Source: a virus
Taxonomy: Duplodnaviria; Caudoviricetes
Reading direction: 5' to 3' (one strand)
Virus record (IMG/VR): IMGVR_UViG_3300021256_000057
Span: 119,568 to 183,567 of that record
Length of the DNA: 64,000 nt
Positions 793 through 21,269 of the stretch are shown here, one piece after another. A program made the position numbers and the translations under genes. The notes below the pieces were generated by a model. That model was not told where the DNA came from and did not search any database. It was given only the letters and a program-made list of their open reading frames with translations. Each line of letters starts with the position of its first letter. The stretch's first letter is position 1.

Positions 793-807
793 GATCGGAC
801 AGCTCCC

Positions 808-1323
808 TTACTTCTCCATTGTCTCAAAGATCTCTACAGCATCATTGTATCCTAGGTCTCGAAGTTCACGGCACATAAGAGTGATAGCTTCTGCGTATCG
901 ATACTTCTTTGGACAGAAGTCCTTTATCCGCTTCATCTCTTCAGTGAACTTTGTTGTATCTCTCGGAGCTGTACGAATATCTGTTGATGGCTCTGTCAGT
1001 ATAACGATCGAAGCAGCAGATGTGCCTGTTTCATATATGCCTCTATCTAGGATGATTATGCCGCCATCATTTGTTAGATGGTCCTCCAAACGTTCCTCTA
1101 TCAAGGACAAAGCAGTTTGAAATACATCCGTATCTGAAGGAGATGGTGTCTTGTTTAGAGGCCGAGCCTGCATGTACTTGACCATGATATCAAAAACAAA
1201 TCGTTCACATGCATCTTTAGCGGATCGGATGTCGTGGTCATTATCTACTGCATAGCAAAACGTCTCTTCTTTCTGATAGTTTGTAAACGCACCTTTAGGT
1301 GTGATCTTTATTGTGATCTTCAT
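808..1323 (-). CDS. hypothetical protein
   Basis: 171-aa ORF in operon context. Confidence 0.6.
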   Translation of the reverse strand: MKITIKITPKGAFTNYQKEETFCYAVDNDHDIRSAKDACERFVFDIMVKYMQARPLNKTPSPSDTDVFQTALSLIEERLEDHLTNDGGIIILDRGIYETGTSAASIVILTEPSTDIRTAPRDTTKFTEEMKRIKDFCPKKYRYAEAITLMCRELRDLGYNDAVEIFETMEK

Positions 1324-1327
1324 GTTA

Positions 1328-1726
1328 TCACTCCATTCGCAATTCGTTCTTGATGTACTTTGTAGGATCCTGCTTATAAAAGGTGCTAGACCCTATTCTT
1401 ACAGGAAAATGCTTGTCACCCACACTTTTTGATAAAAGTTCTACATGAACATATTTAGAAGCATGACCAATGCGATATCGCATTTGAAGTGCATCGTTCA
1501 GCTCCACGTTGATATCTTTCAGATGCATATAGCGGAACAGATGCTCACCATCGTACTGTATGGTCACACCGAATAAGCCATCACCATCTTTGAGAATAGA
1601 GACCACAACGCCATTGCACATCGTACAGACATCATCAGTCTTTACATCTACGCCTAGATGCTTTGATGACCATGGAGTTATGATCTCTATCGGTTCAAAT
1701 GACAGCATAGAATATGAGATTTTCAT
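1328..1726 (-). CDS. M23 peptidase-like protein
   Basis: HLGVD (HxxxD), YMHL and YVHVE motifs; likely start MKISYS at 1726. Confidence 0.6.
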   Translation of the reverse strand: MKISYSMLSFEPIEIITPWSSKHLGVDVKTDDVCTMCNGVVVSILKDGDGLFGVTIQYDGEHLFRYMHLKDINVELNDALQMRYRIGHASKYVHVELLSKSVGDKHFPVRIGSSTFYKQDPTKYIKNELRME

Positions 1727-1733
1727 TTTCTTC

Positions 1734-3194
1734 TTATCCCACCATGAAGTTTGTAGACAGATGCTCAAAGTTAGGATACATCGTACCAAAGTCTACTTTA
1801 TATGGAGTAATGATATTATTTGTTTTCTCGGAGCTGCCCACGAATGTCCGCCTACCAGATACATAAATCCCTTGTGTAGAAGCGACCGCATTTGCGTTAC
1901 TGATAACAAGTCTCTGTAGCTTCAAAGAGGTGATAAATGTATTTGATATCGTATGTGTTACGGACATGATGTTGTATACGCCCGTAACAGGAGATATGCT
2001 ATTCCCTGACATCACAAGGAGAGAAACAGGCTGTGCCAGCTCGAAATTCTTTACAGTACCAACTATCTGCACAGTAAAGTCACCGCTAAACTGTGTAGCA
2101 AGTGCATTGATGTCATTGATGATGTTGGATGCCTGATAGGTATCTGCTACGGAGCTGGACCAGGAGTTTACGACCTCCCAATCTCTTGTGATATCTTGAC
2201 CGCTGCCATCTACAGCAAATCCAACTTGTGTAAAGTTCATATCAGACAGATTATAAGCAACACCATCATAATTACCGCTCATAGTCAGGATATTTGTATT
2301 TGATGTACCATATTCTAGCAGCTCTAGTCCCTGCCCTGTCTGAAGCGCAGCAGATGATTTATAGTGGATGATACCAGGAGAAGTCATCGTCGGCTCTTCT
2401 ACCCAGTATGAGAATGAAGTACACTGAGGAGCTGTATCTGCATTACTGTGCCTCAAATACTCATTTACTGGTGTTACGGAATGATTATTCAGCACACTAT
2501 TCAAAGAATGGTATCCGTACCGTAGGCCAGCGGCATCTCTAGATGCACTATAAGACCGTGACAGTTTTATCAATCCAGGGAACTGATCATAGTCGTCCTT
2601 TGTAGAATAAGTGCCACGAATATAAGAATTGAAACTTGTCGTTAAGTTACCATGCGATATTAGTGTAGGTGCATCATTGTGATCTATATCTAGCTCATAA
2701 TAATAGTTGGCCTTTACCGCCTTTGCAAGAGCTTCAGCGACCGCAGATGGTTGTACAAACCCAGATAGTGCTGGTATACGCAAAACAGGCATACTGCTCT
2801 GTACAGACAAAGTAGCAAAGCCTTTTATCGTATACCTCATATACAGACCATCCGTTGATACCTTGAATGTAAGGGTAAACCCTTGATATGATCTATACTC
2901 TAATACATTACCAAAGTCATCTAACCAACCGAATGCAAAGGATACTGGGATACCGCTGGAATTAGGATATCTGCTTGCGTCTTGTGCTGCACTATATATC
3001 AATGCTTCAAACGATGATGCATTTACCCCTCTTGAAGCATCTCCACCTACGATGCAAGCTAGTGTGAATGAGGTCATGGAGGTTATCTCACTATTGGACA
3101 GCTCCAAGGATGTGAATGGAGAGGGTATCAATAGACCATAGTCAGTAAGAGATACCCCAGCCAATGTAAAATTACAAAATGCTGTTTTCTTCAC
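1734..3194 (-). CDS. putative baseplate hub / gpD-like tail protein
   Basis: 486 aa; C-terminal TGVYNIMSVTHTISNTFITSLKL typical of hub proteins; tail-module position. Confidence 0.55.
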   Translation of the reverse strand: MKKTAFCNFTLAGVSLTDYGLLIPSPFTSLELSNSEITSMTSFTLACIVGGDASRGVNASSFEALIYSAAQDASRYPNSSGIPVSFAFGWLDDFGNVLEYRSYQGFTLTFKVSTDGLYMRYTIKGFATLSVQSSMPVLRIPALSGFVQPSAVAEALAKAVKANYYYELDIDHNDAPTLISHGNLTTSFNSYIRGTYSTKDDYDQFPGLIKLSRSYSASRDAAGLRYGYHSLNSVLNNHSVTPVNEYLRHSNADTAPQCTSFSYWVEEPTMTSPGIIHYKSSAALQTGQGLELLEYGTSNTNILTMSGNYDGVAYNLSDMNFTQVGFAVDGSGQDITRDWEVVNSWSSSVADTYQASNIINDINALATQFSGDFTVQIVGTVKNFELAQPVSLLVMSGNSISPVTGVYNIMSVTHTISNTFITSLKLQRLVISNANAVASTQGIYVSGRRTFVGSSEKTNNIITPYKVDFGTMYPNFEHLSTNFMVG

Positions 3195-3228
3195 ATCGTC
3201 AGCTCCTTCTACCTTATTATAACGAGTT

Positions 3229-3272
3229 GAAAAAAAGAAATGGTGATAAGCACGTTATATGCCTATCACCAT
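3229..3272 (-). terminator. intrinsic terminator
   Basis: ATGGTGATAGGC/GCTTATCACCAT stem followed by U-tract on the minus strand. Confidence 0.65.
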
Positions 3273-3298
3273 TATATAAGGTTTAATACAAATCACGT

Positions 3299-3628
3299 TC
3301 AGATATAAATCAATGAGGTATTCACATGAGTGCTCGATCCTATTTTCAAATCTTGATGTGTGCCAATTCTGACACATTCAATTACGTTGTCAACTATTCT
3401 ATAAATCAGGACAAGGTCCCCCTTGATATGAATTGTATTACAAACCCCATAGGAATGCCCATTTCAAGAATACGAATAAGCATGTGCCTGATACCCGCCT
3501 GGTAGATCTCTAATATTAGGAGTTCTTCTTATAACATCGATTCTTTCTGATAGTTTAGTAAGATTCTCATGTGCTCCAAGTAATTGAAGTATGTCTTTCT
3601 AATACAATGAAGTGCATCGAATCTGCAT
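3299..3628 (-). pseudogene. YafQ/RelE-family toxin pseudogene
   Basis: One frame from ATG 3628 reads MQIRCTSLY*KD...YSYS*...HIKGDLVLIYRIVDNVIECVRIGTHQDL; in-frame TAG 3599-3601 and TGA 3464-3466. Confidence 0.7.
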
Positions 3629-3653
3629 GTACGAATCTGAATATTGCCTTTTC

Positions 3654-3881
3654 TTACTTGAGTAAATCTTCAATGGAATCACCATACATTTCATATCTCG
3701 TTTGGATAGCTTTCATCATATCAGCAGCACTGTTATATGGGCCAAATGTGAAGTCAGGATCTGCAAGTGCAGCTCTGTATTCTTCTACGGTCATTGGTAC
3801 AGGATTATTATAAGCCATCCCAAATATCTTTTTCATCTCTGCGATTTTATCTGCATCTGACATGCCAATGAACTTTTTCAT
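3654..3881 (-). CDS. putative RelB/DinJ-like antitoxin
   Basis: 75 aa directly upstream of the YafQ-like pseudogene; C-terminal GPYNSAADMM resembles DinJ-type tails. Confidence 0.4.
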   Translation of the reverse strand: MKKFIGMSDADKIAEMKKIFGMAYNNPVPMTVEEYRAALADPDFTFGPYNSAADMMKAIQTRYEMYGDSIEDLLK

Positions 3882-3899
3882 AAGACCACCCCCATAAAT

Positions 3900-4322
3900 C
3901 TACATGTATTTTAGAAGCTCTTTTACTGAAAACGGCATCTCATGTTTAGTATCTTCTGGAATCAACTGCGCTATCTCTTCTACTGAGTAACGACAGTTGT
4001 TCTTAATGGCCTCAAACATTGCATACTGTATGTCCTTAACTATTTCACTATGGGAGCTGCACCAATCGTGTACAGTGTGCTTCAGCGAATCAAGAGCAAC
4101 TATTTCATCATGAGGCCTCTTCTTCCAGGAAAAAGCTGCATATGCTTTTTGCGCTGTTTTATACCCAAATCCCTGTGCATCGTCAAACACTTCTCCAGTA
4201 TCGCTATCTATGATGATATATCGATACTCCGTATAGAAGTCTTGTGTCTTTTCAAGACGAATGACTTTTACATTCTCAGGTACAGGACGGTTGTATCCAG
4301 TATATGGCTTTTTCTTTCTCAT
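3900..4322 (-). CDS. hypothetical protein
   Basis: 140 aa; sigmaA-like TAGACA-17-TATAAT upstream (~4340-4368). Confidence 0.65.
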   Translation of the reverse strand: MRKKKPYTGYNRPVPENVKVIRLEKTQDFYTEYRYIIIDSDTGEVFDDAQGFGYKTAQKAYAAFSWKKRPHDEIVALDSLKHTVHDWCSSHSEIVKDIQYAMFEAIKNNCRYSVEEIAQLIPEDTKHEMPFSVKELLKYM

Positions 4323-4502
4323 AGTGCCTACCCTCTTAATTATAGCACGATTGATTCACCATGTCTATACACACAATGCACAAATACCACTCGGATAGTT
4401 GTGCATTGTGTAACAGTCTATTTTACTCGTAGATAGTTCCGCAGAGCGTAAGCTCGGATTTACCAAGCTCGGAGCTGAAGTTATTGTCTGCTGTATATGG
4501 CA

Positions 4503-5105
4503 TCAATAGCCGTATCTATCGCGGTCTTCAAGCTCGTTGATCGTTTGTTCAAGGGCGATTTCTGCTCCCTCATATGCCTCAGAGATGCTCTCATTCCACA
4601 TATCATCCATCATCTTATCAAATGCATCCTGATTGTAATTGAACAGCTCCTTTTCAATGTCGATCTCATGATACAGTTCATCAATAGTACCACAATCGCG
4701 TTCTACACGAAGCTGCTCAAGGTAATTGTAAATGCTATCATCGTAATCTGCAAACATCTCTACAATATCAGAAGATTCGATGTTATCAAGGTCGGAATAA
4801 TACTCTTGTCCTCTAGTAGAATAAATGACTATACTATCACTATCCTCCCAAGAGTTTCCGCCTGGATTCCAAAATACACTTGTAGTACCATCGGGATACA
4901 GATATAGATCCTGCTGAGGTCGTCCATTAGCATCCTTCATAAGCGCAATGATATCGTCCTTTAGAGAATCCCACTTATCATAAATCAGCTTGATCCAGAA
5001 CTGATTATCATGTGCCTCCTCTGATGCGCGGACATACTTACGGTATCTTGTATTCTTAGAAGCAGATACTCGATTTGACTTGTTATTTGAACGATAAATT
5101 CTCAT
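4503..5105 (-). CDS. acidic protein with basic N-terminal leader
   Basis: GGAGG SD; MRIYRSN..VSAS..VRAS leader; AACCTTATATA upstream. Confidence 0.7.
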   Translation of the reverse strand: MRIYRSNNKSNRVSASKNTRYRKYVRASEEAHDNQFWIKLIYDKWDSLKDDIIALMKDANGRPQQDLYLYPDGTTSVFWNPGGNSWEDSDSIVIYSTRGQEYYSDLDNIESSDIVEMFADYDDSIYNYLEQLRVERDCGTIDELYHEIDIEKELFNYNQDAFDKMMDDMWNESISEAYEGAEIALEQTINELEDRDRYGY

Positions 5106-5204
5106 ATTTAGCCCTCCTAATTGATATGGTACACTGTACCTACCGATATATAAGGTTGTATACTGTCAAGTATTCTTTAATTATTATAACGAGTGGAAAG
5201 ATGA

Positions 5205-5642
5205 TCATTCGCTTCCAAGCTGGAGCTGCATAGGTGGTATGGATGCAAGAAGTTCCCCCTTGTTGAACAGATCAGTAAAGTTCTTTAGTATGCGGATTCG
5301 CTGCCCCTCAAATACTGTGAAGCCATCTTCGATATTATTGAAATATGAGATGATCCAGCTATACTGTGCAGATCCATAGAATTTGTATGCGATAAGGTCC
5401 AATCTGTTCTCTTCCATGAGAGGTACTGTATACCAATCAAAGACTGCGTTTGAAACAAAGGCATTTGGTGTTTCCAGTGTCATAAATCTATCATCACTCA
5501 CAGGCCCATGAACGACTTGTCTAAGACCTCTGTATCTGCTGATATGATCAAAGTCACGGCACACAGTATATTCTATACCAGTATGATCTATTACTTTATA
5601 TGGTTTTAATGTGTCATAATAAATTGGTTTACTATATCTCAT
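5205..5642 (-). CDS. baseplate wedge protein (gp53/LysM-like)
   Basis: RLDLIAYKFYGSAQYSWIISYFNNI motif. Confidence 0.75.
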   Translation of the reverse strand: MRYSKPIYYDTLKPYKVIDHTGIEYTVCRDFDHISRYRGLRQVVHGPVSDDRFMTLETPNAFVSNAVFDWYTVPLMEENRLDLIAYKFYGSAQYSWIISYFNNIEDGFTVFEGQRIRILKNFTDLFNKGELLASIPPMQLQLGSE

Positions 5643-6673
5643 CCTATGATCCCTCGCTTTTGGATAGATGAGTAATTTACTGGCTCGTTTGCTATCTCTG
5701 TGATAGTAATTGATAGATTTACTTCGAGAGGCATGTCGTCAAGACCGATAGGACTTTCTTCATTGTACTCCCACTCCACATTTGTTAGTATGCCTGTGAT
5801 TAGAGCAGCTCCCTTGATGTATAGCGTAACTTTGGAGGTCAGAACCGCAGCTCCATTGAATTGTGGATAGCAGTTAGCCTCGCAGAAGCGTATCAGCTCG
5901 TTGCACTTACCATCTCGATGATCGCCTGTCCACATGTCTCTATGCATATGGAATGAGTAAGTATTCGTTCTGGGGCCGGAGGATCTGTATACATATGTGG
6001 GCTCATATTGATACAGCATATCAGGCATGGTATCATAAGTAGCAGCTACACCATCTTTTATACCAATAGGGAAAACAGGGAAGTCGATGGATGATCCACT
6101 CAACGATGAATATAGTGTTATCTCGCCCCATGGTAGCTTGAACCACTGCATGAATGAAGAAGATGATGTGCTATTTACGATCGCACCGCCAGCTCCACGC
6201 CCTGCAAATGAAGTAGAATCAAAAATAGTCTGCGGTATAGTGCCACTAGAATCCTTTGAGAAATACTTCATTGCATTAGAGTAAGTATCGCTCGATACAG
6301 GGATCCCATTCCCAAGCACATTTGTACTTGTTTTTATCTCCACGTCATCTGGTATCATAAGATAGCCTGGGATCGACCCGATCGTATGCATCACTTTCCA
6401 TCCATCTTCGGACTGTGTTGCAACAGCTTCAAATATATCGCTGTTATCTGTCATCCGGCCCAATATCTCACGTTTACGCTGATTCGGTACATTTCCTCCG
6501 CTAGATATATTATAATTATCTATCGCGTAGTTGCATACCTCTTTATACTCTTTCCCAACATTCTTTGTTCTTGGGAGCCAGTTTGTCGCCAATACCTCAT
6601 CAACATTCCTCGAACCTACCATATCGGACAGCTCCGACAATGTAGTTTTATCGTCTATTTTAAGGAGTTTCAA
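5639..6673 (-). CDS. tail-tube initiator / baseplate protein
   Basis: LysM-like N-terminus, tube-fold-like C-terminus (PLEVNLSITITE). Confidence 0.5.
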   Translation of the reverse strand: MKLLKIDDKTTLSELSDMVGSRNVDEVLATNWLPRTKNVGKEYKEVCNYAIDNYNISSGGNVPNQRKREILGRMTDNSDIFEAVATQSEDGWKVMHTIGSIPGYLMIPDDVEIKTSTNVLGNGIPVSSDTYSNAMKYFSKDSSGTIPQTIFDSTSFAGRGAGGAIVNSTSSSSFMQWFKLPWGEITLYSSLSGSSIDFPVFPIGIKDGVAATYDTMPDMLYQYEPTYVYRSSGPRTNTYSFHMHRDMWTGDHRDGKCNELIRFCEANCYPQFNGAAVLTSKVTLYIKGAALITGILTNVEWEYNEESPIGLDDMPLEVNLSITITEIANEPVNYSSIQKRGIIG

Positions 6674-7272
6674 TTGTTATTCACCGCCAATTCTGGAGCT
6701 GACCGTTTCAAACGTATACTCTTTACAACATGTGGTTCACCGAACATCGTAGGTGGACGGAGATCAATGACAGCTCCAGTAGATTCGATCGTAACTGTCT
6801 GTGCAAGCAGCTTTCTCCGTATCCACTCTTTGCTTTCTTTTAAGCAAGCCTTTGCTGATGCAGCATCGAACACATCATCTACATTATCTGTACCTAAAGG
6901 AAGTATCAGATCATGGATATCTTTTATATCCGATGTTGGTCCTATGACAGCTCCTAGCATATAGGAGTACACCCAATTGGGTATTACATAAGTCCCCTTG
7001 GTCTCGATATATTGATCAATATGATATTGGATAGCAGTAACAAGTTTCGCATGTGCGGTACTCAATTCTAGGTCAGCCTCATCTGGGTTACTATAATTCA
7101 CCCAAAAGAAGCCCTCAAAAGATGGACTAAACGTATCACCAGTCGCGTCCTGCGAGTATTCTAGTTTGCGAAACGCTTCAAACATTTCTTCATCCGATAT
7201 CAGATGATAAGGATAATTTGGCAGATATCCTTGATCGATATATCGTATCTTTATTACATCATGAATAAACAT
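6670..7272 (-). CDS. hypothetical virion protein
   Basis: 200 aa, coupled to neighbours in tail module. Confidence 0.55.
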   Translation of the reverse strand: MFIHDVIKIRYIDQGYLPNYPYHLISDEEMFEAFRKLEYSQDATGDTFSPSFEGFFWVNYSNPDEADLELSTAHAKLVTAIQYHIDQYIETKGTYVIPNWVYSYMLGAVIGPTSDIKDIHDLILPLGTDNVDDVFDAASAKACLKESKEWIRRKLLAQTVTIESTGAVIDLRPPTMFGEPHVVKSIRLKRSAPELAVNNN

Positions 7273-7285
7273 AGGACAGCTCCCA

Positions 7286-9937
7286 TCATACCATTAGTGT
7301 GGATCCTGAGAAGTAATGGAACGAGTTTGTTGACCAGGCATCAATGAACTTTGGATCTGTATCTTCAACGATACTTGCAGTAATGAAGAACGCGATCGAG
7401 CCAGGAGTTATCGTATTCTCATATGCATCATAGCTCGGTGTAAGCAAAGAGAACCTAGTGTCCTGCACCATATAGCTAGATGGGTTTGTTAGTACATAGG
7501 ATGCAATAAACTGGCCTGTCACCTTTATCTGGTTAGGCATCCTCCTCTTTGGGTAGTAGAGGCTAGGTCCTTGCGGCAATTCAAACGATGTTCTGATGAT
7601 AAAGTTACCAGTGCGGACATTTGATGTAGATGCGTTTCTCACAAGAACGGATGCGCCTACAACATCGCCGTTTGACTTGAATGTGATGCTCTTTAGAGCT
7701 ACCATGAAGTGATTATCATTAGGAGAAGATGTACTCCAGGATTCACTTGTAGTGACATTCAGCTCCTCATAAACAGATGTGCTTGCGCTGCATATTACTT
7801 CCATACCATCTACAACGAGATCCGGATCAGTCAGAGCAAACCGCTGATACCACAAGGTCATGTCTACGATATTCGTAAGATAGTTAATGATACTGCTATC
7901 ATAATAGAGACAAGAGCGATATAGATTGATATTAGGCGTACCAGATATCTTATTCTCAACACGGATACGAGAACAGTCAGAGATATTGATCGTAATATTA
8001 CTGCTTGCGTTCCCATATAGATGTAGATATACAGAGGTATTAAATCTGCTGTCTATATCGTAGATGTCGATCGTCTCTGCATCATCTGAATCAGTGACTG
8101 TCACATTGATATGGATCACATTTGGATTTTCTGCGTTCTGGATCTGATTTGCGTTAGGGAATGCTACACGCTGATTTACATACTCATTGAGGTACGCCTG
8201 TACTTCTTCATTTGAGGCACCAGAGGGTGTTGTAAAGTCCTCACCGAGCTGATATGCCAATACACCAGTACGGAGCAGAGCGTAGTCCATCAATCGCAGA
8301 TGACCATCTTCATCCAGATATACATAGCCATAGTCTGTTGCAGTATCTGGTACGTTCAGAAATCCGCCAACGATATCTTCTGAAGCTACTGGAATAGGAC
8401 CAGACAATACGATCGCATCAGAATACTCTTTTGCAGATGTGACAGTTACTGTGTAATAATACTTTTTAACTTCCCCATTCTCATCTGTATAAGTATATAG
8501 GAAGTAATCTATGTTCTTACGACCTCTATACTGAGTTAGATCACCCCAATACTCACTATATACCTCTGGATCATCTGTAGATGGCGGATCAGCTCCGTCT
8601 TCAAACGATGAGGATACAACGTTCAGCTCCAAGCCCTCACCGCCATCATAATCCTCTGAATACGCGATCTCTTGCACATACCCTGGTATGATGACATACA
8701 TGGTAGAAGGTTTCTTATCTATCACGGTAGACTCATAGATGACTGTGTTATCTTGATTTACAAGGATATAATCGCCAGGATTCCAATTATCATTGATCGA
8801 TGGAAGATCCTCTACAGCATCAAGGTAGTCGATGTAGAATATCTGCTTACCTCCTACGGACATCCGATAGGTATTAACATCTTCGCGCAGCTTCTTGATA
8901 ACATTTGTGTACTTGCTATCGACTGTACCACCTGTACCTAGGTTATAGTCTGCCTTTGGTATAGCCAATGATACTGGATCAAAATACAATGTTTGCCCAT
9001 GCTCATCAGTGACACTGTACCCAGCAGAGCCATCTATCTGCTTGTGTGGTAGGTATAGTCGTACTGATTCATTAGCGTCAAGACCAAATCTCGCAGATTC
9101 CAATTCAGGCTTTGTGGTGCTCTTATGAGGAAATGCATCCCATACGATAAGAGAATCATCTACAGCACACCATGTATCAGACTTCGTTTCAGTTCTACCC
9201 TTACCTGCATATACATAATGACTTCCGGGGTCAAGGCCTGTCTTTTTGATAAATTCATCAGACAGTAGATCATCTGCGCTTCCAGTTCTTATTGCATCAA
9301 AAATACGACACTTTGCTGGATAGTTGTTTGATACATTTGAGATACCAGAAGATGTGAACAAGAATGAGCCTAGTTTGATGTGCGCGGTCACTTCTGCCTC
9401 ATCGTTTGGCACATCACTAGGCAATTTGAACTCATCGCTTGGGAGAATTACTACTTGGATACCCTCGAATAGATACTCACCGGCACCTGTTGCATCTGTT
9501 ACTTCTGGCTTCAGCGACCCTGCCATAGTAGACTCTGTACTGTATATGGCAATAAGTCCTATTGAGATCTCGCCTTCGAGGATAGACTTGCCCTCAGCAC
9601 GGAGCTGTTCATTGATCTCGAACATATCAAGGGAGATAGGGACAAGAGATTCGATAAAGTGTCCATTTACAACAGCTCTGCCAGGTTGGATCTCAATGAT
9701 GCCGTTTGCAGGGATAGCAGCATCTTCTCCGAAATCCAGTGCATTCGAGCTAGCGAGAAGGTAAAAGTCCTTCTCACCATGTACGAATGACTGACCAATG
9801 TAGTAGTTTACGCTCTCTGATGTAGCAACACTATCAATGGAGCGCAGATTATACTCCGTGAGGAGCTGTCCTCCAGTCGATGTGTTCGTCATCGGGAAGA
9901 TGTTTGTGGTATTCACAGAAAAACATGTCAAATTCAT
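7286..9937 (-). CDS. large baseplate/tail structural protein
   Basis: 883 aa, acidic, IQPGRAVVNGHF motif; follows tape measure. Confidence 0.55.
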   Translation of the reverse strand: MNLTCFSVNTTNIFPMTNTSTGGQLLTEYNLRSIDSVATSESVNYYIGQSFVHGEKDFYLLASSNALDFGEDAAIPANGIIEIQPGRAVVNGHFIESLVPISLDMFEINEQLRAEGKSILEGEISIGLIAIYSTESTMAGSLKPEVTDATGAGEYLFEGIQVVILPSDEFKLPSDVPNDEAEVTAHIKLGSFLFTSSGISNVSNNYPAKCRIFDAIRTGSADDLLSDEFIKKTGLDPGSHYVYAGKGRTETKSDTWCAVDDSLIVWDAFPHKSTTKPELESARFGLDANESVRLYLPHKQIDGSAGYSVTDEHGQTLYFDPVSLAIPKADYNLGTGGTVDSKYTNVIKKLREDVNTYRMSVGGKQIFYIDYLDAVEDLPSINDNWNPGDYILVNQDNTVIYESTVIDKKPSTMYVIIPGYVQEIAYSEDYDGGEGLELNVVSSSFEDGADPPSTDDPEVYSEYWGDLTQYRGRKNIDYFLYTYTDENGEVKKYYYTVTVTSAKEYSDAIVLSGPIPVASEDIVGGFLNVPDTATDYGYVYLDEDGHLRLMDYALLRTGVLAYQLGEDFTTPSGASNEEVQAYLNEYVNQRVAFPNANQIQNAENPNVIHINVTVTDSDDAETIDIYDIDSRFNTSVYLHLYGNASSNITINISDCSRIRVENKISGTPNINLYRSCLYYDSSIINYLTNIVDMTLWYQRFALTDPDLVVDGMEVICSASTSVYEELNVTTSESWSTSSPNDNHFMVALKSITFKSNGDVVGASVLVRNASTSNVRTGNFIIRTSFELPQGPSLYYPKRRMPNQIKVTGQFIASYVLTNPSSYMVQDTRFSLLTPSYDAYENTITPGSIAFFITASIVEDTDPKFIDAWSTNSFHYFSGSTLMV

Positions 9938-13904: not shown

Positions 13905-13940
13905 TCCCTTATAATAACGAATAGGGATGCCGAAACATCC

Positions 13941-14225
13941 CTATCGTTTTGCCTTCCGTTGTGCATTAGATTCAAGACGTTTCTTTCTTTCATCTACCTC
14001 TCTGGTAAACGATTCAACGTACTTTTTTCGTATGAATATGGGTTGCTGATACAACCACTCTGCTGAGATAGCACCCTCGGAAGCTCTAGCGATGAACATT
14101 ACCTCATCGGTGATATTCTCATACAGTTTTTGCCTTACCTCGTGCAGGCTTTTCATTTCCCCCTGCACTTCTATCATGTTTCCAGGCTCTGAGATCTCCC
14201 ACGGTCGGACGAAAGAAACGATCAT
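13941..14225 (-). CDS. tail assembly chaperone C-terminal part (T-like)
   Basis: Overlaps 14119..14937 and precedes TMP; true start uncertain. Confidence 0.5.
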   Translation of the reverse strand: MIVSFVRPWEISEPGNMIEVQGEMKSLHEVRQKLYENITDEVMFIARASEGAISAEWLYQQPIFIRKKYVESFTREVDERKKRLESNAQRKAKR

Positions 14226-14937
14226 CTGTCAGAGCGATGAAACTTGCACGATTAGAATGGCATATAGGACACTGTGTAACACCAGCGAGCTTTAGACCAT
14301 AGTTAGTCTTGGAGCTGGCCGTATCTCTCAATGCGATGTAGTCAGCAGATGATAGATGATTCTGGATGTACATCTTCACTTCAAACGGTGTCATGCCGTT
14401 CTTTGTGCCAATAGATCGAATGCTATAGCACAATCTGGCCAGCTCCCTATTAACAGAACCATTCTCACGCTTGAACACATCATCATTATACGCAGCAAGC
14501 ACTTCCTTCATGGTAAGGAGCTGTAGTGTAATATCACCATCAAAGTCGATAAGATCATCTCTACTGATAACGATCTCATTCTTAAAGCCCTCTGGAAGTG
14601 GGACACACTCGATCGTATTCAGATTTACTTGATACTCACCATCTGATGATCTCTGACCACAATCCCGACAAAGAATAAGATTTGTCGTATAATATGGACC
14701 GTAGTTCAAGATACGCAGGCACCGGCAGAGCCAATAATAATCTATCTCCAGCAATTGGTTGCAGTCGATCTTCTCCTCAATAGCAGATGGTAGGATCTTT
14801 TCGATCATTGTCTTGTCGAAGTCCTCACTGCCTACATAGTCCAGCTCCGAGATAGTAGGCAAGCTATGAAGTGTGAGTTGATCTGGGATAGAAGTATACA
14901 GACCCTTACCAAGCAATTCGATCTTCTCTGAAATCAT
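14119..14937 (-). CDS. baseplate hub assembly / tail chaperone (T4 gp26-like)
   Basis: LLEIDYYWLCRCLRILNYG, two CxxC pairs, terminal FF; late motif upstream. Confidence 0.65.
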   Translation of the reverse strand: MISEKIELLGKGLYTSIPDQLTLHSLPTISELDYVGSEDFDKTMIEKILPSAIEEKIDCNQLLEIDYYWLCRCLRILNYGPYYTTNLILCRDCGQRSSDGEYQVNLNTIECVPLPEGFKNEIVISRDDLIDFDGDITLQLLTMKEVLAAYNDDVFKRENGSVNRELARLCYSIRSIGTKNGMTPFEVKMYIQNHLSSADYIALRDTASSKTNYGLKLAGVTQCPICHSNRASFIALTDDRFFRPTVGDLRAWKHDRSAGGNEKPARGKAKTV

Positions 14938-14971
14938 GATGACACTCTCCTTAAACGGTTTTTAGGGATAT

Positions 14972-15014
14972 TAAAAAAAATATCAGTGAGTATGTCTTTT
15001 TACTCACTGATATA
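14972..15014 (-). terminator. intrinsic terminator overlapping AACCTTATATA motif
   Basis: ATATCAGTGAGTA/TACTCACTGATAT stem plus T-run. Confidence 0.65.
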
Positions 15015-15041
15015 TAAGGTTATTGATGCGGATGCATTCTT

Positions 15042-16781
15042 TTACCCTACTTCGCGCTCCCCGACGATCAAACGCTGCTCGCGGTCATAGACTTCATCGA
15101 ACTCCTCCATGATCGGATCATACTGGATGTCGGATAAACGATCAGCCGTCTGCACTCCGACCCTTCCGTCATCATTGCGAAACAGAGAGATGAAACGGAT
15201 ATCCATTGGATGCTCATCAGCCTCATGATCCTGATAGACTGCCGCCATATTGAATGCCTGCTGCACAAAATAGCTATGTGTCGTCACAAACACCTGTACA
15301 CCGATCCTGGAGAGGTTGATCAATGCCTTGGCGACCGGGTAGATCATCTTGGGATTCATATTAGCCTCCAGCTCATCCCAAAACAGGATCGAGTTGTTCG
15401 CCAGTCCACCGGACATTACGAGATACATCAGTGTAGCCAGCTTACGGTATCCCTCAGAGACAAGGCTCATCTCAAAATTGCCCTCGCCATGGATCTTCAG
15501 GAAAAACTGATCGTTATCTTGTGAGATGTTTCCCTTGATGATGTCAGAAAATAGCGTAAGGACCGAGTTTTGCTCCTCGCTATCACGTCCCTTCTGTAAT
15601 GGCCATAATAGCAGCTTTGCAAGATCATAATACGTTTCATCGAATCCGATCTCGTACCGCTCATACAGCGAACAAAAAGCACCAGCAGTGGAAATGATCT
15701 CCTTGGGCGGGATATAGACCGGGGTAAACTCCGTTTCCACTCCGTGATCCAACTGGTAGTCTAGATGGTTGATCTGCTTATTCGAGAACGAAAGCCTCAC
15801 ATCGGCATCATTGTCAAATACAGTATGGATACTGGCTCTTGTTGCTCCTGTGCGCGTCACAAGTCGATGAAGGGCATGATTGCTAGGCTTAAAAACATTT
15901 ATCAGCTTTTTAACAAACGCACCTTCAACCGCCGCCTTGGTTTGATCAGCGTGCAGTTCACGTCCGAGTTTTGACAACACAGCAGCCTGCGTATACAGCA
16001 GCTTCATCAACGCTGTTTTACCTGTGCTATTCTCCCCAAATATGACGTTCACATCTTTAGAGAGATCAATATTCAATTCCTGAAACAGCATAAAGTTCTG
16101 GATATCCACATTCTTGATCTTCATCGATATGGGCATGTCATGTGTATGTGCAGGAGTCTGCTCAGTCTTGCCGTAGCCGTTCAGCCCCCTGCCCTTGATG
16201 ATGGCCGGGAAATCCTTATTGCAGATATCCAGATCCACATTGCCGTTGATGCCTGCAACCTTGCCATTCTTAGAATGGTGCCAAAGGCCGTAAGCACCGC
16301 TGTAATTTGTCTCATCGACCCAGTTCGCCAGCCAGATGGTGTAGCGGCTCTTGATGTCATCGGAGGTGTGTGTGGTCAGCGAAGAAGCCGAGCCGTGCAG
16401 ACCGACAAAATAGCCTTCCGCTTCCACCCTTTCAAGGAACGCCCGCATGATCGCCGACACCTTCTCCTTGCCGAGAGCAAACTGCTTTTGTTCCTCCACA
16501 GCATAGTACACAGGGAACTCGAACTGTTTTCCCTTGATGACAGACAGGAAAACATCCGCCTCCAATCGTGCCTCGTCCTCACTCATGGCGTAGGAATACC
16601 AGTATGCACCGACCAGAACGCCAGCCGCCTTTGCGCCGAAGTAGTTCTGCTCGAAACACTCGTCCTTCTGCGATGCAAGTCTGCCGTACCCTGCATGCAG
16701 GATGGCATAATCAATGCCGTCAGCCTTGACATTACCCCAGTCAATATCGCCGTTGTGTACGCTCACAACAATACCCTTCAT
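15042..16781 (-). CDS. fusion of degenerate GH25 lysozyme and ABC/AAA_21-type ATPase (ORF open to 17003 through an M15-peptidase remnant)
   Basis: GGAGG SD before ATG 16781; GH25 fold; from 16124 Walker A GENSTGKT, signature VSEGYRK, Walker B LFWDE, TTHS; higher GC than flanks. Confidence 0.75.
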   Translation of the reverse strand: MKGIVVSVHNGDIDWGNVKADGIDYAILHAGYGRLASQKDECFEQNYFGAKAAGVLVGAYWYSYAMSEDEARLEADVFLSVIKGKQFEFPVYYAVEEQKQFALGKEKVSAIMRAFLERVEAEGYFVGLHGSASSLTTHTSDDIKSRYTIWLANWVDETNYSGAYGLWHHSKNGKVAGINGNVDLDICNKDFPAIIKGRGLNGYGKTEQTPAHTHDMPISMKIKNVDIQNFMLFQELNIDLSKDVNVIFGENSTGKTALMKLLYTQAAVLSKLGRELHADQTKAAVEGAFVKKLINVFKPSNHALHRLVTRTGATRASIHTVFDNDADVRLSFSNKQINHLDYQLDHGVETEFTPVYIPPKEIISTAGAFCSLYERYEIGFDETYYDLAKLLLWPLQKGRDSEEQNSVLTLFSDIIKGNISQDNDQFFLKIHGEGNFEMSLVSEGYRKLATLMYLVMSGGLANNSILFWDELEANMNPKMIYPVAKALINLSRIGVQVFVTTHSYFVQQAFNMAAVYQDHEADEHPMDIRFISLFRNDDGRVGVQTADRLSDIQYDPIMEEFDEVYDREQRLIVGEREVG

Positions 16782-16931
16782 ATCCTCGCCTCCAAAATAC
16801 TTGTAAAAATCATCGGTCACGGTGTTGTTACCGTGGACTTCATCGCCATACCACTTGCCGTTCGGGCGCACATCGACATGAGTGTACTGATATGCCGCCG
16901 TGATGTTTGCGATACCCGTGAAGCCAATATC

Positions 16932-17003
16932 TTGTGCAACTTGCACAGTGCGGTTTTTATTTTCCCTAGGGGAAATACAATACAGCATGTGCAAGTTGCA
17001 CAA
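16932..17003. repeat. ~70-bp imperfect palindrome centred on CCCTAGGG (copy 1)
   Basis: Perfect 16-bp outer arms TTGTGCAACTTGCACA/TGTGCAAGTTGCACAA; core TATTTTCCCTAGGGGAAATA. Confidence 0.85.
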
Positions 17004-17006
17004 ATA

Positions 17007-17702
17007 TCACACAAATGGAAATGAGATTTGGGAGCTGTCCGCATCCCACCCATACATGATATCACCGCCGATGAAGTTCCGTCTTGTCTGTCTACATGCA
17101 TCGAACACTGAGTATCCACCGCTTGCTGGGTCGCAAACATAGTCTCCTTCATTGGTAACAGCAAGGATAAGTTGCTTTTGCAGCTCTATGGGCTTAGAAT
17201 GAGGATGTACTTTTATTACCTTTTCATCCCATACATCGGGGATGTTATGAAGAGTCCATGTAGACTTCGCCAAGATGGGCTTCTTCTGGATAACAATTAG
17301 ATATTCGCACTTGCGCCGTGTCCGATAGCCCATGCCAATCTTTTGCTTATTCCATGTAATGAGGTCAACACATTGCATATCGGGCAGCTTCTTGAACCAC
17401 TCTTGTACGCCCTCTACCAGATGGAACTTGTCCACCCAGAGGAACAGATATCCGCTCGGCGCAAGGATTCGATTGATACCATGAAGAAACTCGATGATCG
17501 TATCATTATCCATCTGCTCTAAGTCACAGCGAGCTTTACCCCTCTGTTCTCCCTCATTACCATAGGATAGTTTATCAAGAACACCGCGGTACTGAGGATC
17601 AAAGAATACTGCCTTGATGCAGGAATCCTCGATCTCTCCGAGCAGCTCTCGGCCATCACATTTATTCTGGTGGTTCACTTTGAATTTGTCAGATCTAAGC
17701 AT
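17007..17702 (-). CDS. DNA N6-A/N4-C methyltransferase (beta class)
   Basis: DPQY catalytic motif, HPHSKP, VCDPASGGYS SAM motif. Confidence 0.85.
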   Translation of the reverse strand: MLRSDKFKVNHQNKCDGRELLGEIEDSCIKAVFFDPQYRGVLDKLSYGNEGEQRGKARCDLEQMDNDTIIEFLHGINRILAPSGYLFLWVDKFHLVEGVQEWFKKLPDMQCVDLITWNKQKIGMGYRTRRKCEYLIVIQKKPILAKSTWTLHNIPDVWDEKVIKVHPHSKPIELQKQLILAVTNEGDYVCDPASGGYSVFDACRQTRRNFIGGDIMYGWDADSSQISFPFV

Positions 17703-17710
17703 AAATAAAA

Positions 17711-17780
17711 ACAGCTCCCTTACTCCAAAATACTATCACTTATTATAACGAGTGGTAGTATCATGAAATAAGGGAGCTGT
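17711..17780 (-). promoter_or_regulatory. hairpin over the MTase RBS with CGTTATAAT in its loop
   Basis: ACAGCTCCCTTA/TAAGGGAGCTGT outer stem, inner stem, loop CGTTATAATA. Confidence 0.6.
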
Positions 17781-17794
17781 CCGATGTGTATGTA

Positions 17795-18277
17795 TCACAT
17801 ATCTGTCTCGTAGTAAAACTGGTCAAGAGCAGGGTTTCCAGTCAGCTTCATGATCCCATAATGATGCAACGGCACAAAATCATATCTGTTTCCAGATAGA
17901 TTAAAGTATTTGATGCAGTTCTCACGGAACTTTGCATTTTGGCAAAGCGCTTCGCTACAAATGATCTCATAGCTCTGAGTGCGGATATTGTAGATAACAC
18001 GGCCACGCTCTATAGACTTGTATCCATTATTGATGATATTCTGCCGCTCAGAAGGAGATTCAATATACTTAGCTACGGCTGATCTCCATAGGTTAAGATG
18101 GTTCTTCTCATTGGAGTATTGTAGATAACCGTTGGATTCTACGGCATTATCAAGATCTGTTGAGTAGTCCCAGAACTCACCGTGATCTGTATACCACCAG
18201 ATAGATACAAGCCCCGTTTTGTATCCGCTTGTAATTGGGGTCTTTTTAACTCTTGTTCTGATAAGGATCTTAGCCAT
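17795..18277 (-). CDS. hypothetical protein
   Basis: 160 aa; TTGACT-17-TATAAT at 18346-18374. Confidence 0.7.
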   Translation of the reverse strand: MAKILIRTRVKKTPITSGYKTGLVSIWWYTDHGEFWDYSTDLDNAVESNGYLQYSNEKNHLNLWRSAVAKYIESPSERQNIINNGYKSIERGRVIYNIRTQSYEIICSEALCQNAKFRENCIKYFNLSGNRYDFVPLHHYGIMKLTGNPALDQFYYETDM

Positions 18278-18428
18278 GTTCTCATCTCCTATCGATTCAA
18301 TGCTTTGTTTTACAACATCAATTCGGAGCTGTACTCCCTACTATTATTATACCATATCTACGAGATGAAGTCAATAATTATTATAGATATAGCGGTCATA
18401 CTTTTGCATATGACCGCTATTTGATGTG

Positions 18429-18674
18429 TTATTCGTCGTTCCGCTCGTCCCACTTACGGAAGTCCCACATACGAAACAGATACGCAAGGGAGCTGGCCAA
18501 TTCAGATGTGCTTAGAGTTTCAACGATTTCATGATCGACATCCTCCTGCCCATATGTGTCACAGGCCAGCTCGTAGGATTCATCGACTTCATTATTCTCT
18601 ACTACCCATCCATAGCTCTCAGCGGCAGTAATACGGCGAGCTGGCTCCTTATATTTTGTACATGATCTGTGCAT
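18429..18674 (-). CDS. small acidic protein, possibly 5-prime truncated
   Basis: Start lies inside palindrome arm; RRITAA motif. Confidence 0.5.
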   Translation of the reverse strand: MHRSCTKYKEPARRITAAESYGWVVENNEVDESYELACDTYGQEDVDHEIVETLSTSELASSLAYLFRMWDFRKWDERNDE

Positions 18675-18741
18675 CTTATATAATCGTGTTTGTATTTACC
18701 CTAGGGAAAATATTATACGATTTGACGTTATGCACAGATCA
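18663..18741. repeat. ~70-bp imperfect palindrome centred on CCCTAGGG (copy 2)
   Basis: Arms TGATCTGTGCAT/ATGCACAGATCA; core TATTTACCCTAGGGAAAATA. Confidence 0.85.
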
Positions 18742-19839
18742 ATCATTGAAACCATCATCGTAGAGTTCATCGTTGCTGTTCCAAACGACATCACCATCGT
18801 CATCATAATAGTCCTCGATGTCTCCATAATAGTTTACTCTGTAATGTACAATCACTACTGTGATCTCATCATCAGCATACTGAGGGTTCGCAGCGTACTG
18901 CTTGGCAGTTTCGATAGCATCATCCAAATCCTCAATGGCATTTCCCTGATAGTCTCCATTGATGCAGATTTCATAATACATTTCAACTGTTTCACCATGA
19001 GCCCATCTATTGAGCCAGTCTACAAGTTCCTTATCAGGAATCTCCACCTTGAGGAGCACAGTAGAATGATAAGTATATGCAGTAACATCGAACTTACCAT
19101 CGAATGTGATAGTTACCCATCCACCACCGATATGGATAGTGTCCTCGATGCCGTCAATGTCATCGATGACTTCCTTTAGGCTCAGACCAATCATATCTTC
19201 GCCCTCTTCATAGGTATCAGGACGAACCTCATATACTTGGATATTTACAGGGATATCACCAAGTTCTGGATCTCCGCCATCATAGTAAGTACCGATGGAC
19301 TTGATATCGATAGTACCCTTGCACCATCCGTTCTCTGGTTCTAGGAAGTTATGAGCTCCATTGTATTCCTGATAGAAACCACCGTTGGGTACTTCTGTAA
19401 ACTGGATATCATTGAGCTTTAATGTAATAGCAGAACCTGGGCCTGCCATGATTGCCTTCTTAGTTGAACGCTTATTAGTATTAGCATTTACATATTTACC
19501 GGATGAACGCTTGCTTGAATTAACACCTACATACAGGCTTGCAGCCTTTTTCTTCAGCATATCAGCAATCTGCTTATTCGGACGGCGATCAAAAGAGCTA
19601 TTAACTCCAAGATACTGAATAACATTATCCGGGGTTATATCTGACTTATGCATTCCGAACGGAAGATCCAATATAATAAATCCACGGTTATTATAGCCAA
19701 GTCCATTATCGGATGAGTCCCACCATGTAGCTACTGCATTACCATAATCACCTTGCTCCATCTGAATATAATAGGTAACACCGTTACGCTTAAACGATGC
19801 ATCATACGTCCCATCTGCCCAATTTGAATAGATCTTCAT
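18739..19839 (-). CDS. acidic multidomain protein with MKIYSN leader
   Basis: 366 aa; internal basic linker with VNS/VNA/IMA motifs. Confidence 0.7.
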   Translation of the reverse strand: MKIYSNWADGTYDASFKRNGVTYYIQMEQGDYGNAVATWWDSSDNGLGYNNRGFIILDLPFGMHKSDITPDNVIQYLGVNSSFDRRPNKQIADMLKKKAASLYVGVNSSKRSSGKYVNANTNKRSTKKAIMAGPGSAITLKLNDIQFTEVPNGGFYQEYNGAHNFLEPENGWCKGTIDIKSIGTYYDGGDPELGDIPVNIQVYEVRPDTYEEGEDMIGLSLKEVIDDIDGIEDTIHIGGGWVTITFDGKFDVTAYTYHSTVLLKVEIPDKELVDWLNRWAHGETVEMYYEICINGDYQGNAIEDLDDAIETAKQYAANPQYADDEITVVIVHYRVNYYGDIEDYYDDDGDVVWNSNDELYDDGFND

Positions 19840-19860
19840 AATACATTCCTCATTTCTTCA

Positions 19861-20178
19861 TCAATAGCCAATAGTATCCATGATGTCATAATAGATCCAC
19901 TCTGCTCTTCTGATCAGCCACGAGCGGTTCTTTTTATCAAGATTATTAAAATCGTCCCCAAAAAACATAATATGGTCGGCATCAAGATAATCCCAGTGTA
20001 GATAAACATTGCCGTCATCATCCGGATCATCAAAGTAAATCTCACGCAGGTTAGGATTATCAAGCAGAAAATCAATGATCTTATCGACTGCGACTTCCTC
20101 ACTGTCATTTACGTTGAAATAGCCATTAGAGCCATATGCGCTTACTGCTACATAACGGTTATTAGAATATATCTTCAA
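19861..20178 (-). CDS. acidic protein with MKIYSN leader (TTG start)
   Basis: TTG AAG ATA TAT TCT AAT at 20178 after AGGGTG SD. Confidence 0.6.
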   Translation of the reverse strand: MKIYSNNRYVAVSAYGSNGYFNVNDSEEVAVDKIIDFLLDNPNLREIYFDDPDDDGNVYLHWDYLDADHIMFFGDDFNNLDKKNRSWLIRRAEWIYYDIMDTIGY

Positions 20179-20242
20179 AATCGTACACCCTTTTATTGAT
20201 TCTGTCTCCGAGCTTCTGTGATTGCTTCTTTCCACCATTATA

Positions 20243-20569
20243 TTATATAACGAACACACCGTATCCTTTTTCAAGATACTCCGCACTTTCATCCTTGTAC
20301 TCTTCACCGATAGCTCTGAATAGCCTTGCGGCATCTTCATTATCTGGTGCTACTACGATAGTATCGAATTTATCGGACAATAGTTTCATTGTAGCTGTGC
20401 CGTATCCGTAGTTTCTGTATTGAGGCATAATATCTATCCTCTCACAGAACGCTACATCATCTACAGCTATTGTACAATCACCTATTGTAATACCGTCTGT
20501 TTTTATAGAGTACAGGATGTAAATGTACGGAGTATCATAGGAGGTGTTTTCTTCTACCAGCTCAACCAT
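20243..20569 (-). CDS. GNAT acetyltransferase
   Basis: IDIMPQYRNYGYGT acetyl-CoA motif; NEDAARLF. Confidence 0.75.
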   Translation of the reverse strand: MVELVEENTSYDTPYIYILYSIKTDGITIGDCTIAVDDVAFCERIDIMPQYRNYGYGTATMKLLSDKFDTIVVAPDNEDAARLFRAIGEEYKDESAEYLEKGYGVFVI

Positions 20570-20570
20570 A

Positions 20571-21116
20571 TCAGCGGAAGTCAGATGGCTTCATGTAAAT
20601 GGCCTGGGAGATAATAAATGGTACTTGTACCTTTACTACATCTCCGCCTGTCTGATTCATGCTGCCGTTGTCAAGAGCCCCGATCCATGTACCGGGGCAG
20701 CGGATGACGTCTCTTACATTCCACTGGCCGTCATACTTGATAAAGTATACCTGCTTCATGTACTGAGACGGAAGTCCCATCTTCTGGGTCTCTGGGTCGT
20801 ATACGAGCTTTCTCCATGCCCGTAGGTTCTCTAGGACGTTAGGTTCGCAGTAGCAGTTGAGTGTCCACGTTACATCACCATACGATACCTTGGATGGGAA
20901 CTTGATAAGTCCGTTTCCATAGTGTACGGTAATACTATCCTGCTGTTCCTGAATTGAACCTACTTCATCGGTCGATAGTGTCAGGAGTTCGTTGAACTCG
21001 GTCGGGAGAGATCCGTCCATGTTGTAGACGCGAACTTCAAAGTTATTTGTGGTCAGAGGTACGAAATTATCGATGCCAAGCATATGATTCGTCCCCATCT
21101 GCAGTGGAGTAAACAT
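20571..21116 (-). CDS. tail tube protein (gp19-like)
   Basis: Size and motifs (WRKLVYDPETQKMGLPSQY, CPGTWIG); AACCTTATATA upstream. Confidence 0.75.
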   Translation of the reverse strand: MFTPLQMGTNHMLGIDNFVPLTTNNFEVRVYNMDGSLPTEFNELLTLSTDEVGSIQEQQDSITVHYGNGLIKFPSKVSYGDVTWTLNCYCEPNVLENLRAWRKLVYDPETQKMGLPSQYMKQVYFIKYDGQWNVRDVIRCPGTWIGALDNGSMNQTGGDVVKVQVPFIISQAIYMKPSDFR

Positions 21117-21231
21117 CCGATCATTTCCTTTCAATAAGATTTTTATTTTTGAGTGCATGAGGGAATGTTTATGGTTTTTCTCCCTCTACTTATATATAAG
21201 GTTTTTTGTTTTTCAATTTTTTTTGATGTAA

Positions 21232-21269
21232 TAAAAAAAACAGCTCCTACCGTTAGGGTAGAAGCTGCT
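21232..21269 (-). terminator. intrinsic terminator
   Basis: CAGCTTCTACC/GGTAGGAGCTG stem plus T9. Confidence 0.7.

Follow-up and report, generated by a model that had tools for sequence, protein, structure and literature searches.

The heptamer GGAGCTG, counted together with its complement CAGCTCC, is a DNA-level signal under strong selection in the genome of a rumen phage, and the field that it forms is restricted to one domain of the replicon. We analyzed a 64-kb stretch of this genome (the window; bases 119,568 to 183,567, the final 64 kb of the 183,567-bp IMG/VR record IMGVR_UViG_3300021256_000057, which comes from a rumen sample and is rated complete by CheckV), together with the whole record and its relatives. 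Selection for the exact word is limited to the domain; sites are conserved and also turn over; somewhat more distant phages carry dialects of the word, and one of these dialects is locked in orientation. In the reading that we prefer, to which we assign a probability of about 0.4, GGAGCTG would be a Chi-like word for a host enzyme of the AddAB/RecBCD type, accumulated where the ends of virion DNA fall, as in phage P1.

Extent of the GGAGCTG field and selection on the word

The window contains 44 exact copies of GGAGCTG or CAGCTCC, while 100 dinucleotide-preserving shuffles of the same sequence averaged 6.39 copies and never exceeded 13. An earlier note on this DNA had counted 41 of these copies by eye between positions 800 and 21247 (19 on the plus strand and 22 on the minus strand) and three elsewhere (32510, 53677, and 55597); our recount was identical, although the chance rate given in that note, one per 20 kb, is in fact about one per 10 kb. 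Across the whole genome, GGAGCTG is the commonest of all 7-mers, with 146 copies (62 plus, 84 minus). A two-rate maximum-likelihood fit places 138 of the 146 sites between genome positions 30,134 and 138,062 (107.9 kb, 1.28 per kb, roughly one per 800 bases), which amounts to 59% of the 183.6-kb genome, and leaves 8 sites in the remaining 75.6 kb, where the density of 0.11 per kb is at chance level. An even spread under computer counting, which the earlier note had named as fatal to its claim, is therefore not what the genome presents.

The field does not begin at window position 794, as had been proposed, but extends 89 kb upstream of the window, and the earlier note thus saw only the final fifth of it. 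Its right edge is sharp and falls, by maximum likelihood, at window position 18,495 (genome ~138 kb) rather than at 21247. The part of the field within the window (800 to 18495) holds 40 words, about one per 440 bp, and continues upstream to genome position 30,134; the word-poor part (18496 to 64000) has 4 words in 45.5 kb. One of these, on the minus strand at 21241 to 21247, is an outlier: it supplies the 3' arm of a hairpin that resembles a terminator, with a T-run behind it, directly downstream of an HNH/DUF7487 gene. Word density is 14 to 25 sites per 10 kb in the 50 kb adjoining the right edge and then 6 to 10 per 10 kb. Spacing is close to random (coefficient of variation [CV], 1.06 overall and 0.9 to 1.0 per strand over the whole field), and within sub-domains the per-strand spacing is slightly more even than random (CV, 0.69 to 0.91).

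The word-rich part carries head, tail, and many unannotated genes. The word-poor part encodes DnaB, a primase (Toprim), a split PolA, a clamp and clamp loader, and RecA-like, SMC_N/SbcC-like, and Cas4/RecB-like proteins, as well as several methyltransferases, a T4-type portal, an intein-bearing putative terminase, an IS607-like element, and a homing-type HNH gene. Genes with a homolog in the distant relative G001 (148.7 kb) have 1.27 sites per kb inside the domain and 0.12 per kb outside it, and accessory genes inside the domain have 0.86 sites per kb. Because equally ancient core genes differ inside versus outside, the contrast is positional and does not reflect gene age. We regard the sharp two-domain pattern as a strong marker of some physical asymmetry of the genome, be it its ends, a packaging series, or the mode of replication.

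The word itself is strict. None of the 21 one-mismatch heptamers of GGAGCTG is enriched in the domain, and none is depleted; the sole further base preference is for a C three bases downstream, present at 97 of the 146 sites; in this phage the footprint widens to GGAGCTGNNC. The word and its extensions are asymmetric. Based on simple open reading frame (ORF) calls, 118 of the 146 sites (81%) lie within genes, where they occur in sense frames 27, 2, and 31 times and in antisense frames 19, 19, and 20 times. In the one rare sense frame, the word would impose Cys, Trp, or a stop. Orientation within genes (60 sense, 58 antisense) has no tie to the direction of transcription. The other 28 sites are intergenic, although intergenic DNA makes up only 6% of the domain, and many of them serve also as Shine-Dalgarno sequences or supply the two arms, 18 to 28 bp apart, of terminator hairpins. 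The earlier description of sites in coding sequences of both orientations, in ribosome-binding regions, and in terminator stems is thus borne out in all tolerated frames, as are the four perfect copies of GGAGCTGTCCGAT that it had listed. These lie at 794 to 806 (minus strand; directly upstream of an ATG), 6623 to 6635 (minus), 9938 to 9950 (minus), and 17773 to 17785 (plus), the last three just upstream of an ATG; in each, the GGAG portion doubles as a Shine-Dalgarno sequence.

Codon usage fails to explain the excess. Within the domain we observed 139 sites, while synonymous-codon shuffles gave 47.4 ± 4.0 and whole-codon shuffles gave 40.1 ± 3.9, means that include ~25 unshuffled intergenic sites; the difference exceeds 20 standard deviations. 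Outside the domain, the 7 sites observed match the shuffles (8.4 ± 2.5). The codon-shuffle test that had been put forward as able to overturn the claim therefore leaves it standing, and GGAGCTG joins Chi-type words as a short, nonpalindromic word over-represented beyond codon usage. Together, the frames, the use of both strands, the intergenic sites, the exactness of the word, and the shuffles establish a DNA-level signal under strong selection and not a by-product of coding.

Relatives and dialects of the word

To place this signal in its family, we used homologs of an 883-amino-acid (aa) tail-region protein, fetched with their contigs. The gene for this protein (7286 to 9937, minus strand) contains 5 words, of which only the word at gene position 70 is common to all four clade relatives. 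In each of these four (96, 87, 64, and 62% identity), GGAGCTG is the top 7-mer, at one per 500 to 660 bp. The sample that yielded the 64%-identity relative has 26 sites in 16 kb on its tail contig and 2 in 15.6 kb on its portal/terminase contig, a contrast from which we conclude that the two-domain layout is conserved.

Conservation in related phages, the check proposed in the earlier note, was also evident site by site. In aligned DNA at 77% nucleotide identity, 10 of 18 sites are retained, against 0.20 expected of random 7-mers (p = 9e-4); at 68% nucleotide identity, 7 of 18 are retained, against 0.094 expected (p = 8e-4). Retention exceeds that of random 7-mers 3 to 4 times, yet many sites are lineage specific, and the density is therefore held up through turnover. 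With sites conserved, in all frames, on both strands, and limited to a domain, the proposal of a nonpalindromic DNA-level code written over one genome domain holds.

Somewhat more distant relatives carry other words in the same tail region, with a shared core, RAGCWG. At 52% identity to the 883-aa protein, L179 has GAAGCTG 31 times in 12 kb (16 plus, 15 minus), and at 51%, L178 has GAGCAGG 15 times in 17.8 kb (9 plus, 6 minus). L180 (48%) has GGAGCTGG 9 times in 13.9 kb (9 plus, 0 minus); L119 (49%) has the longer form GGAGGAGCTGG 11 times in 13.2 kb (9 plus, 2 minus). In L017 (46%), GGAGCAGG occurs 9 times in 14.65 kb (6 plus, 3 minus), with a longer footprint of CGGAGCAGGC. The GGAGCTGG dialect, taken over L180 and L119, is orientation locked at 18:2 (p = 4e-4). 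The earlier suggestion that the code is independent of orientation agrees with the 62:84 split in the phage studied here but fails across the group.

Other candidate words in the group were set aside: an apparent motif of G001, GTCTGTCC, proved to be a tandem coding repeat, and GCTGGAGC of L173 a Gly/Ala coding repeat. A different, palindromic word field is present in another branch of the family, where three contigs (L140, L153, and L137; ~41% tail-protein identity) have the palindrome TGGATCCA 16 times in 22.6 kb, against 1.0 expected. Cultured relatives identified by the portal share only ~22% identity, the nearest being the large Firmicute myoviruses Listeria LIS04, Streptococcus GXN1, and Bacillus SP-15. 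Among cultured phages, there was no match to window positions 1 to 21500 by megablast or to the 883-aa protein by tblastn, and an IMG/VR scan with a capsid-region protein gave no match.

A scan of IMG/VR for hairpin-type word pairs returned, among the matches listed, mostly GC-rich chance matches. One of them, G310 (63.6% GC), was rejected as an unrelated word-bearing phage because its words are a codon effect. Another unrelated record, G307 (IMGVR_UViG_3300032074_000011, 42.5 kb, 41.6% GC; L321 to L323), has 43 copies of GGAGCTG on both strands, 2.3 times the Markov-3 expectation; further GC-rich words are over-represented in it (AGCCTGG, 48; CTGCAGC, 59; CCGGCACC, 18), and all are sparse in its central 13 kb. 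This record looks like either a multi-word field or a compositional mosaic.

A Chi-like reading and its rivals

When a short word is this strict, is selected for its number over its position, is written wherever the sequence tolerates it, and has lineage-specific dialects, some specific protein must read it. In the Chi-like reading, GGAGCTG with its preferred C three bases downstream would be a single-strand word for a helicase-nuclease that processes DNA ends, most likely the AddAB/RecBCD-type enzyme of the host. On meeting the word, this enzyme would halt degradation of linear phage DNA and begin RecA-mediated recombination. The phage would gather the word, in both orientations, in the part of its genome where virion DNA ends fall: processive headful packaging would begin near the right edge (genome ~138 to 141 kb, window ~18.5 to 21.3 kb) and head to lower coordinates, and an enzyme entering from either end would soon reach a correctly oriented word within the terminal redundancy. 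The genome would then circularize or prime replication, and related phages on other hosts would carry the dialects of those hosts. The reader, the host, and the locations of the DNA ends in this model are inferred.

The closest known kind of feature is the accumulation of Chi in phages. Whereas the earlier note held that no recognized feature explains the field, P1, LLS, and MD8 accumulate the Chi word of their host as their commonest k-mer (bioRxiv 10.1101/2021.07.08.451572; PMC12315714). P1 carries 50 copies of the E. coli Chi, GCTGGTGG, in 94.8 kb, 31 on one strand and 19 on the other (Subramaniam and Smith, bioRxiv 10.1101/2021.07.08.451572). They crowd the zone in which about four sequential headfuls from pac have their ends and are sparse elsewhere, and they are thought to let RecBCD and RecA, both of which P1 needs, circularize injected DNA (bioRxiv 10.1101/2021.07.08.451572). 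Chi is the commonest octamer of P1 and LLS; in LLS and MD8, host-specific Chi words are clustered at one end, with different dialects in phages of E. coli and of Pseudomonas, and Chi-rich lambdoid phages typically have no Rec module (PMC12315714).

The phage studied here resembles P1 in that the word is its commonest k-mer and lies on both strands, at nonrandom positions with a dense zone. It differs in that the P1 word is the proven E. coli Chi while GGAGCTG is a candidate, and in that the density is 2.4 to 3.6 times higher, the field takes up 59% of 183.6 kb, and the phage has its own RecA-like gene. With phages of the LLS/MD8 type it shares accumulation by selection and not codon usage, clustering in one region, and related phages that lack the word; the word differs with the host in those phages, and a dialect series is found here. 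Those phages, however, have cos ends and near-uniform orientation (20/23; 32/32), unlike the 62:84 seen here, though the GGAGCTGG relatives are at 18:2, and they lack the recombination genes that are present here. If the comparison holds, the new elements would be the use of both strands, the extent of the field, the five dialects, and the uncultivated rumen host.

We rank the P1-type model first because it accommodates the sharp edge and the declining density away from it, the use of both orientations, the lack of the word outside the field, the dialects, and the lock in orientation of one of them. An 18:2 lock is what is expected of a polar signal, and the 62:84 split fits permuted ends, although it fits an absence of polarity equally well. 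The dialects resemble the AddAB words GAAGCGG of Staphylococcus aureus and AGCGG of Bacillus subtilis (bioRxiv 10.1101/2021.07.08.451572) in length and form. Relatives of the TnpB gene carried by the phage, like the habitat of the sample, indicate rumen Clostridia, hosts of the AddAB type; the best of these relatives, in metagenome-assembled genomes of Lachnospira and Ruminococcus, are only ~70% identical.

Several points weigh against this reading and keep our estimate at only about 0.4. In five Lachnospiraceae/Ruminococcus genomes, GGAGCTG occurs at one per 8 to 20 kb; among 301 Clostridia genomes, the denser ones owe the word to in-frame GAG-CTG codons, and no bacterial genome in this sample was shown to use the word as a signal. 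On a Lachnospiraceae scaffold (400 kb), the dialect words are skewed to the leading strand, as are many other purine-rich heptamers. The known Firmicute Chi words AGCGG, GAAGCGG, TCAGCGG, and GCGCGTG are not enriched in the phage, and no comparable dispersed word was found in 55 IMG/VR relatives at ≤45% identity, the complete G001 among them. The literature on the word itself yielded only primer lists, and none was found on a Clostridial Chi word. The phage has its own RecA-like, SMC_N/SbcC-like, and Cas4/RecB-like genes, although the lack of an own recombination module or nuclease inhibitor is a correlate of Chi in lambdoid phages and not a strict requirement. To cover 59% of the genome, many headfuls in sequence would be needed, the putative terminase gene and the sharp edge are ~25 kb apart, and the word density, 1.3 to 1.9 per kb, is above that of P1 and LLS (~0.53 per kb).

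The main rival, which we hold to be rather unlikely, is a DNA-binding protein private to the phage lineage that reads the word as a monomer over ~10 bp. It would coat or organize the structural half of the genome alone, perhaps to silence or compact it or to mark it for packaging or ejection, and drift in its specificity would give rise to the dialects. In one version, which we consider doubtful, the word would be an address label for a lineage-specific DNA-binding or DNA-processing protein, with which it co-evolved into at least five dialects in one uncultivated rumen phage family. Such a reader explains the footprints wider than a heptamer (GGAGCTGNNC, GGAGGAGCTGG, and CGGAGCAGGC) and the match of dialect to lineage as well as the Chi-like reading does: the dialects track tail-protein identity, from GGAGCTG at 62 to 96% through GAAGCTG (52%), GAGCAGG (51%), GGAGCTGG (48 to 49%), and GGAGCAGG (46%) to none at ≤45%. 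The domain limit kept in a relative, the absence of strand bias in this phage, and the lack of a host genome with the word as a signal among the Clostridia examined also favor it. Yet among the annotated genes of the syntenic tail region none is confined to word-bearing phages, the genes near the field boundary have no Pfam match, and a simple binding site would not be expected to show the 18:2 bias of one dialect; we also know of no precedent for such a field within the coding DNA of a lytic phage, which we count against it. The sites of matS/MatP, Noc-NBS (Noc-binding sites), and SlmA-SBS (SlmA-binding sites) are limited to or kept out of one replication-related domain, and the field shares this restriction; those sites, however, are palindromic, dimer-bound, and present at tens per megabase, while the asymmetric GGAGCTG has a density 100 times higher. 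In the stoperators of cluster A mycobacteriophages, as in P1's dispersed C1 operators, asymmetric words are bound by a monomeric repressor with which they co-evolve. Stoperators are 13 bp long, mostly intergenic, and oriented with transcription, unlike the sites here, 81% of which are in genes in orientations unrelated to transcription, and no repressor or lysogeny module was seen in this phage. A matS/Noc-like organizer or late-region silencer, as the earlier note had offered, may be at work; however, two promoter-like classes (described below) occur in both domains, which means that the field is not simply the mark of a temporal class, and no binding protein cognate to the word turned up.

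The remaining explanations are less probable. That the word is the target of a DNA-marking enzyme of the phage (a T5-like nickase, a methyltransferase, or another modifier) that marks DNA for replication, late transcription, or packaging is improbable in our view, even though an asymmetric word of 7 bp is the sort of target that type IIS/IIG/III-like systems typically recognize, the phage has genes for at least five DNA methyltransferases (one of them, a 494-aa N6_Mtase, is large enough to include a target-recognition domain) as well as for HNH, GIY-YIG, and NUMOD4 nucleases, and the HNH/DUF7487 gene adjoins the field edge. As a rule, the sites of these enzymes are neutral or are avoided, and a 12-fold enrichment does not fit that pattern; nothing explains marks in one domain alone; and T5-type nicks fall on one strand only, whereas the sites here split 62:84. 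A role in replication, as start sites for the phage's primase or as some other signal, is very improbable: a Toprim primase and a DnaB-type helicase are encoded by the phage itself, and spacing per strand is slightly more even than random in sub-domains, but over the whole field it is essentially Poisson, and replication spans the whole genome, 75.6 kb of which has no excess of the word. An origin without function, through codon or amino acid usage, biased repair, or escape from an avoided CAGCTG, is largely refuted and the least probable of all. The palindrome CAGCTG (a PvuII-type site) is absent from the whole 183.6 kb and GCAGCTG has zero copies, and GAG-CTG codon pairs do explain high counts in some bacterial genomes. 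Even so, the excess outlasts synonymous and codon shuffles, the word is present in antisense frames and intergenic DNA, one-mismatch neighbors show neither excess nor deficit, site conservation exceeds background, and such a process would act genome-wide and not on 108 kb alone; escape from CAGCTG, in particular, is rejected on numbers and on the domain restriction. In its own right, the absence of CAGCTG beside at least five phage methyltransferase genes suggests restriction-site avoidance. The field also recalls the DNA uptake sequences (DUS) of Neisseria and the uptake signal sequences (USS) of Pasteurellaceae, which occur at ~1 per kb, on both strands, in several gene frames, and in inverted terminator pairs, are sparse in recently acquired DNA, and have lineage-specific dialects one or two bases apart; the likeness extends to density, strands, frames, terminator pairs, scarcity in newly acquired DNA, and dialects. 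DUS and USS, however, are chromosomal and serve natural transformation, with a pilin as their reader, while nothing ties this lytic phage to transformation, and the sampled Clostridia genomes show no such field.

Local elements of the two domains and implications of the field

Several features lie at or near the field edge. A strain-variable cassette with a peptidase-plus-ATPase gene (15051 to 16934) contains no word, in agreement with the earlier observation that sites are missing from 15042 to 16930; in another run, 672 other letters stand in its place. In contigs of other runs, the stretches at 15051 to 16934, 19492 to 20241, 21089 to 21094, and 24124 to 26548 are replaced or absent, and the cassettes include, besides the peptidase/ATPase gene, the IS607-like element with its MerR-resolvase and TnpB. 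The zone just past the field edge is a hot spot of gene turnover. Inside the field, a predicted 231-aa N6/N4 DNA methyltransferase, one of the at least five in the genome, is encoded at 17007 to 17702 (minus strand). Next to it is a 70-bp inverted repeat (17711 to 17780) with a word at the end of each arm and a promoter-like ACTCGTTATAAT in its center. Two long palindromes with a CCCTAGGG core, the only such pair in the genome, flank this methyltransferase block: the first at 16932 to 17003 (DNA fold z = -8.9) and the second at 18663 to 18741 (z = -5.7), 170 bp past the last word of the field. They could be boundary, recombination, or packaging-related elements.

Two promoter-like sequences are found in both domains. 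ACTCGTTATA(A/T)TA, with 29 copies genome-wide (window 17746 to 17757; genome 6514, 34142, 122787, and 150516, among others), is nearly always intergenic and oriented with the downstream gene, and is probably a phage-specific promoter with an extended -10; its counterpart in G001 is ACTCGTCAA, with 11 copies. The intergenic (T)AACCTTATATA (window 21210 to 21225, 26480 to 26495, 38398 to 38410, 48850 to 48865, and 60100 to 60115, and many upstream of the window) precedes many structural and some replication-side genes, in their orientation, and is a candidate late-promoter class reminiscent of T4's TATAAATA.

In the word-poor domain, the family A DNA polymerase (57888 to 61600) is split into two ORFs with a GIY-YIG homing endonuclease gene between them, and the putative large terminase (43575 to 45959) carries an intein; a NUMOD4 gene and the HNH/DUF7487 gene add to what is a heavy burden of selfish elements. 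The same domain also has, outside the window at genome positions 9129 to 12348, an array of 14 tRNA genes, and the differential k-mers of the domain are mostly tRNA T-loop sequences from this array. The 8-mer AAAGCATG has 12 copies in the word-poor 72 kb and none in the word-rich 112 kb, a difference that is borderline after multiple testing. A candidate domain word from portal contigs, TCTGCAAG, was rejected as not domain specific in this genome.

Whichever of the two leading readings is right, the two-domain pattern marks genome asymmetry strongly and lends itself easily to testing. If a private protein reads the word, the field would stand for a new type of viral chromosome-domain code and would reveal a previously undescribed split of a large lytic phage chromosome into two functional domains. 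If the Chi-like reading is true, GGAGCTG, GAAGCTG, GAGCAGG, GGAGCTGG, and GGAGCAGG would provide uncultivated rumen Clostridia with their first candidate Chi words, taken straight from the sequences of their phages, and would offer a handle for matching phage to host from sequence; the logic of P1, with Chi at permuted ends, would then extend to a 183-kb Firmicute-type phage with its own recombinase.

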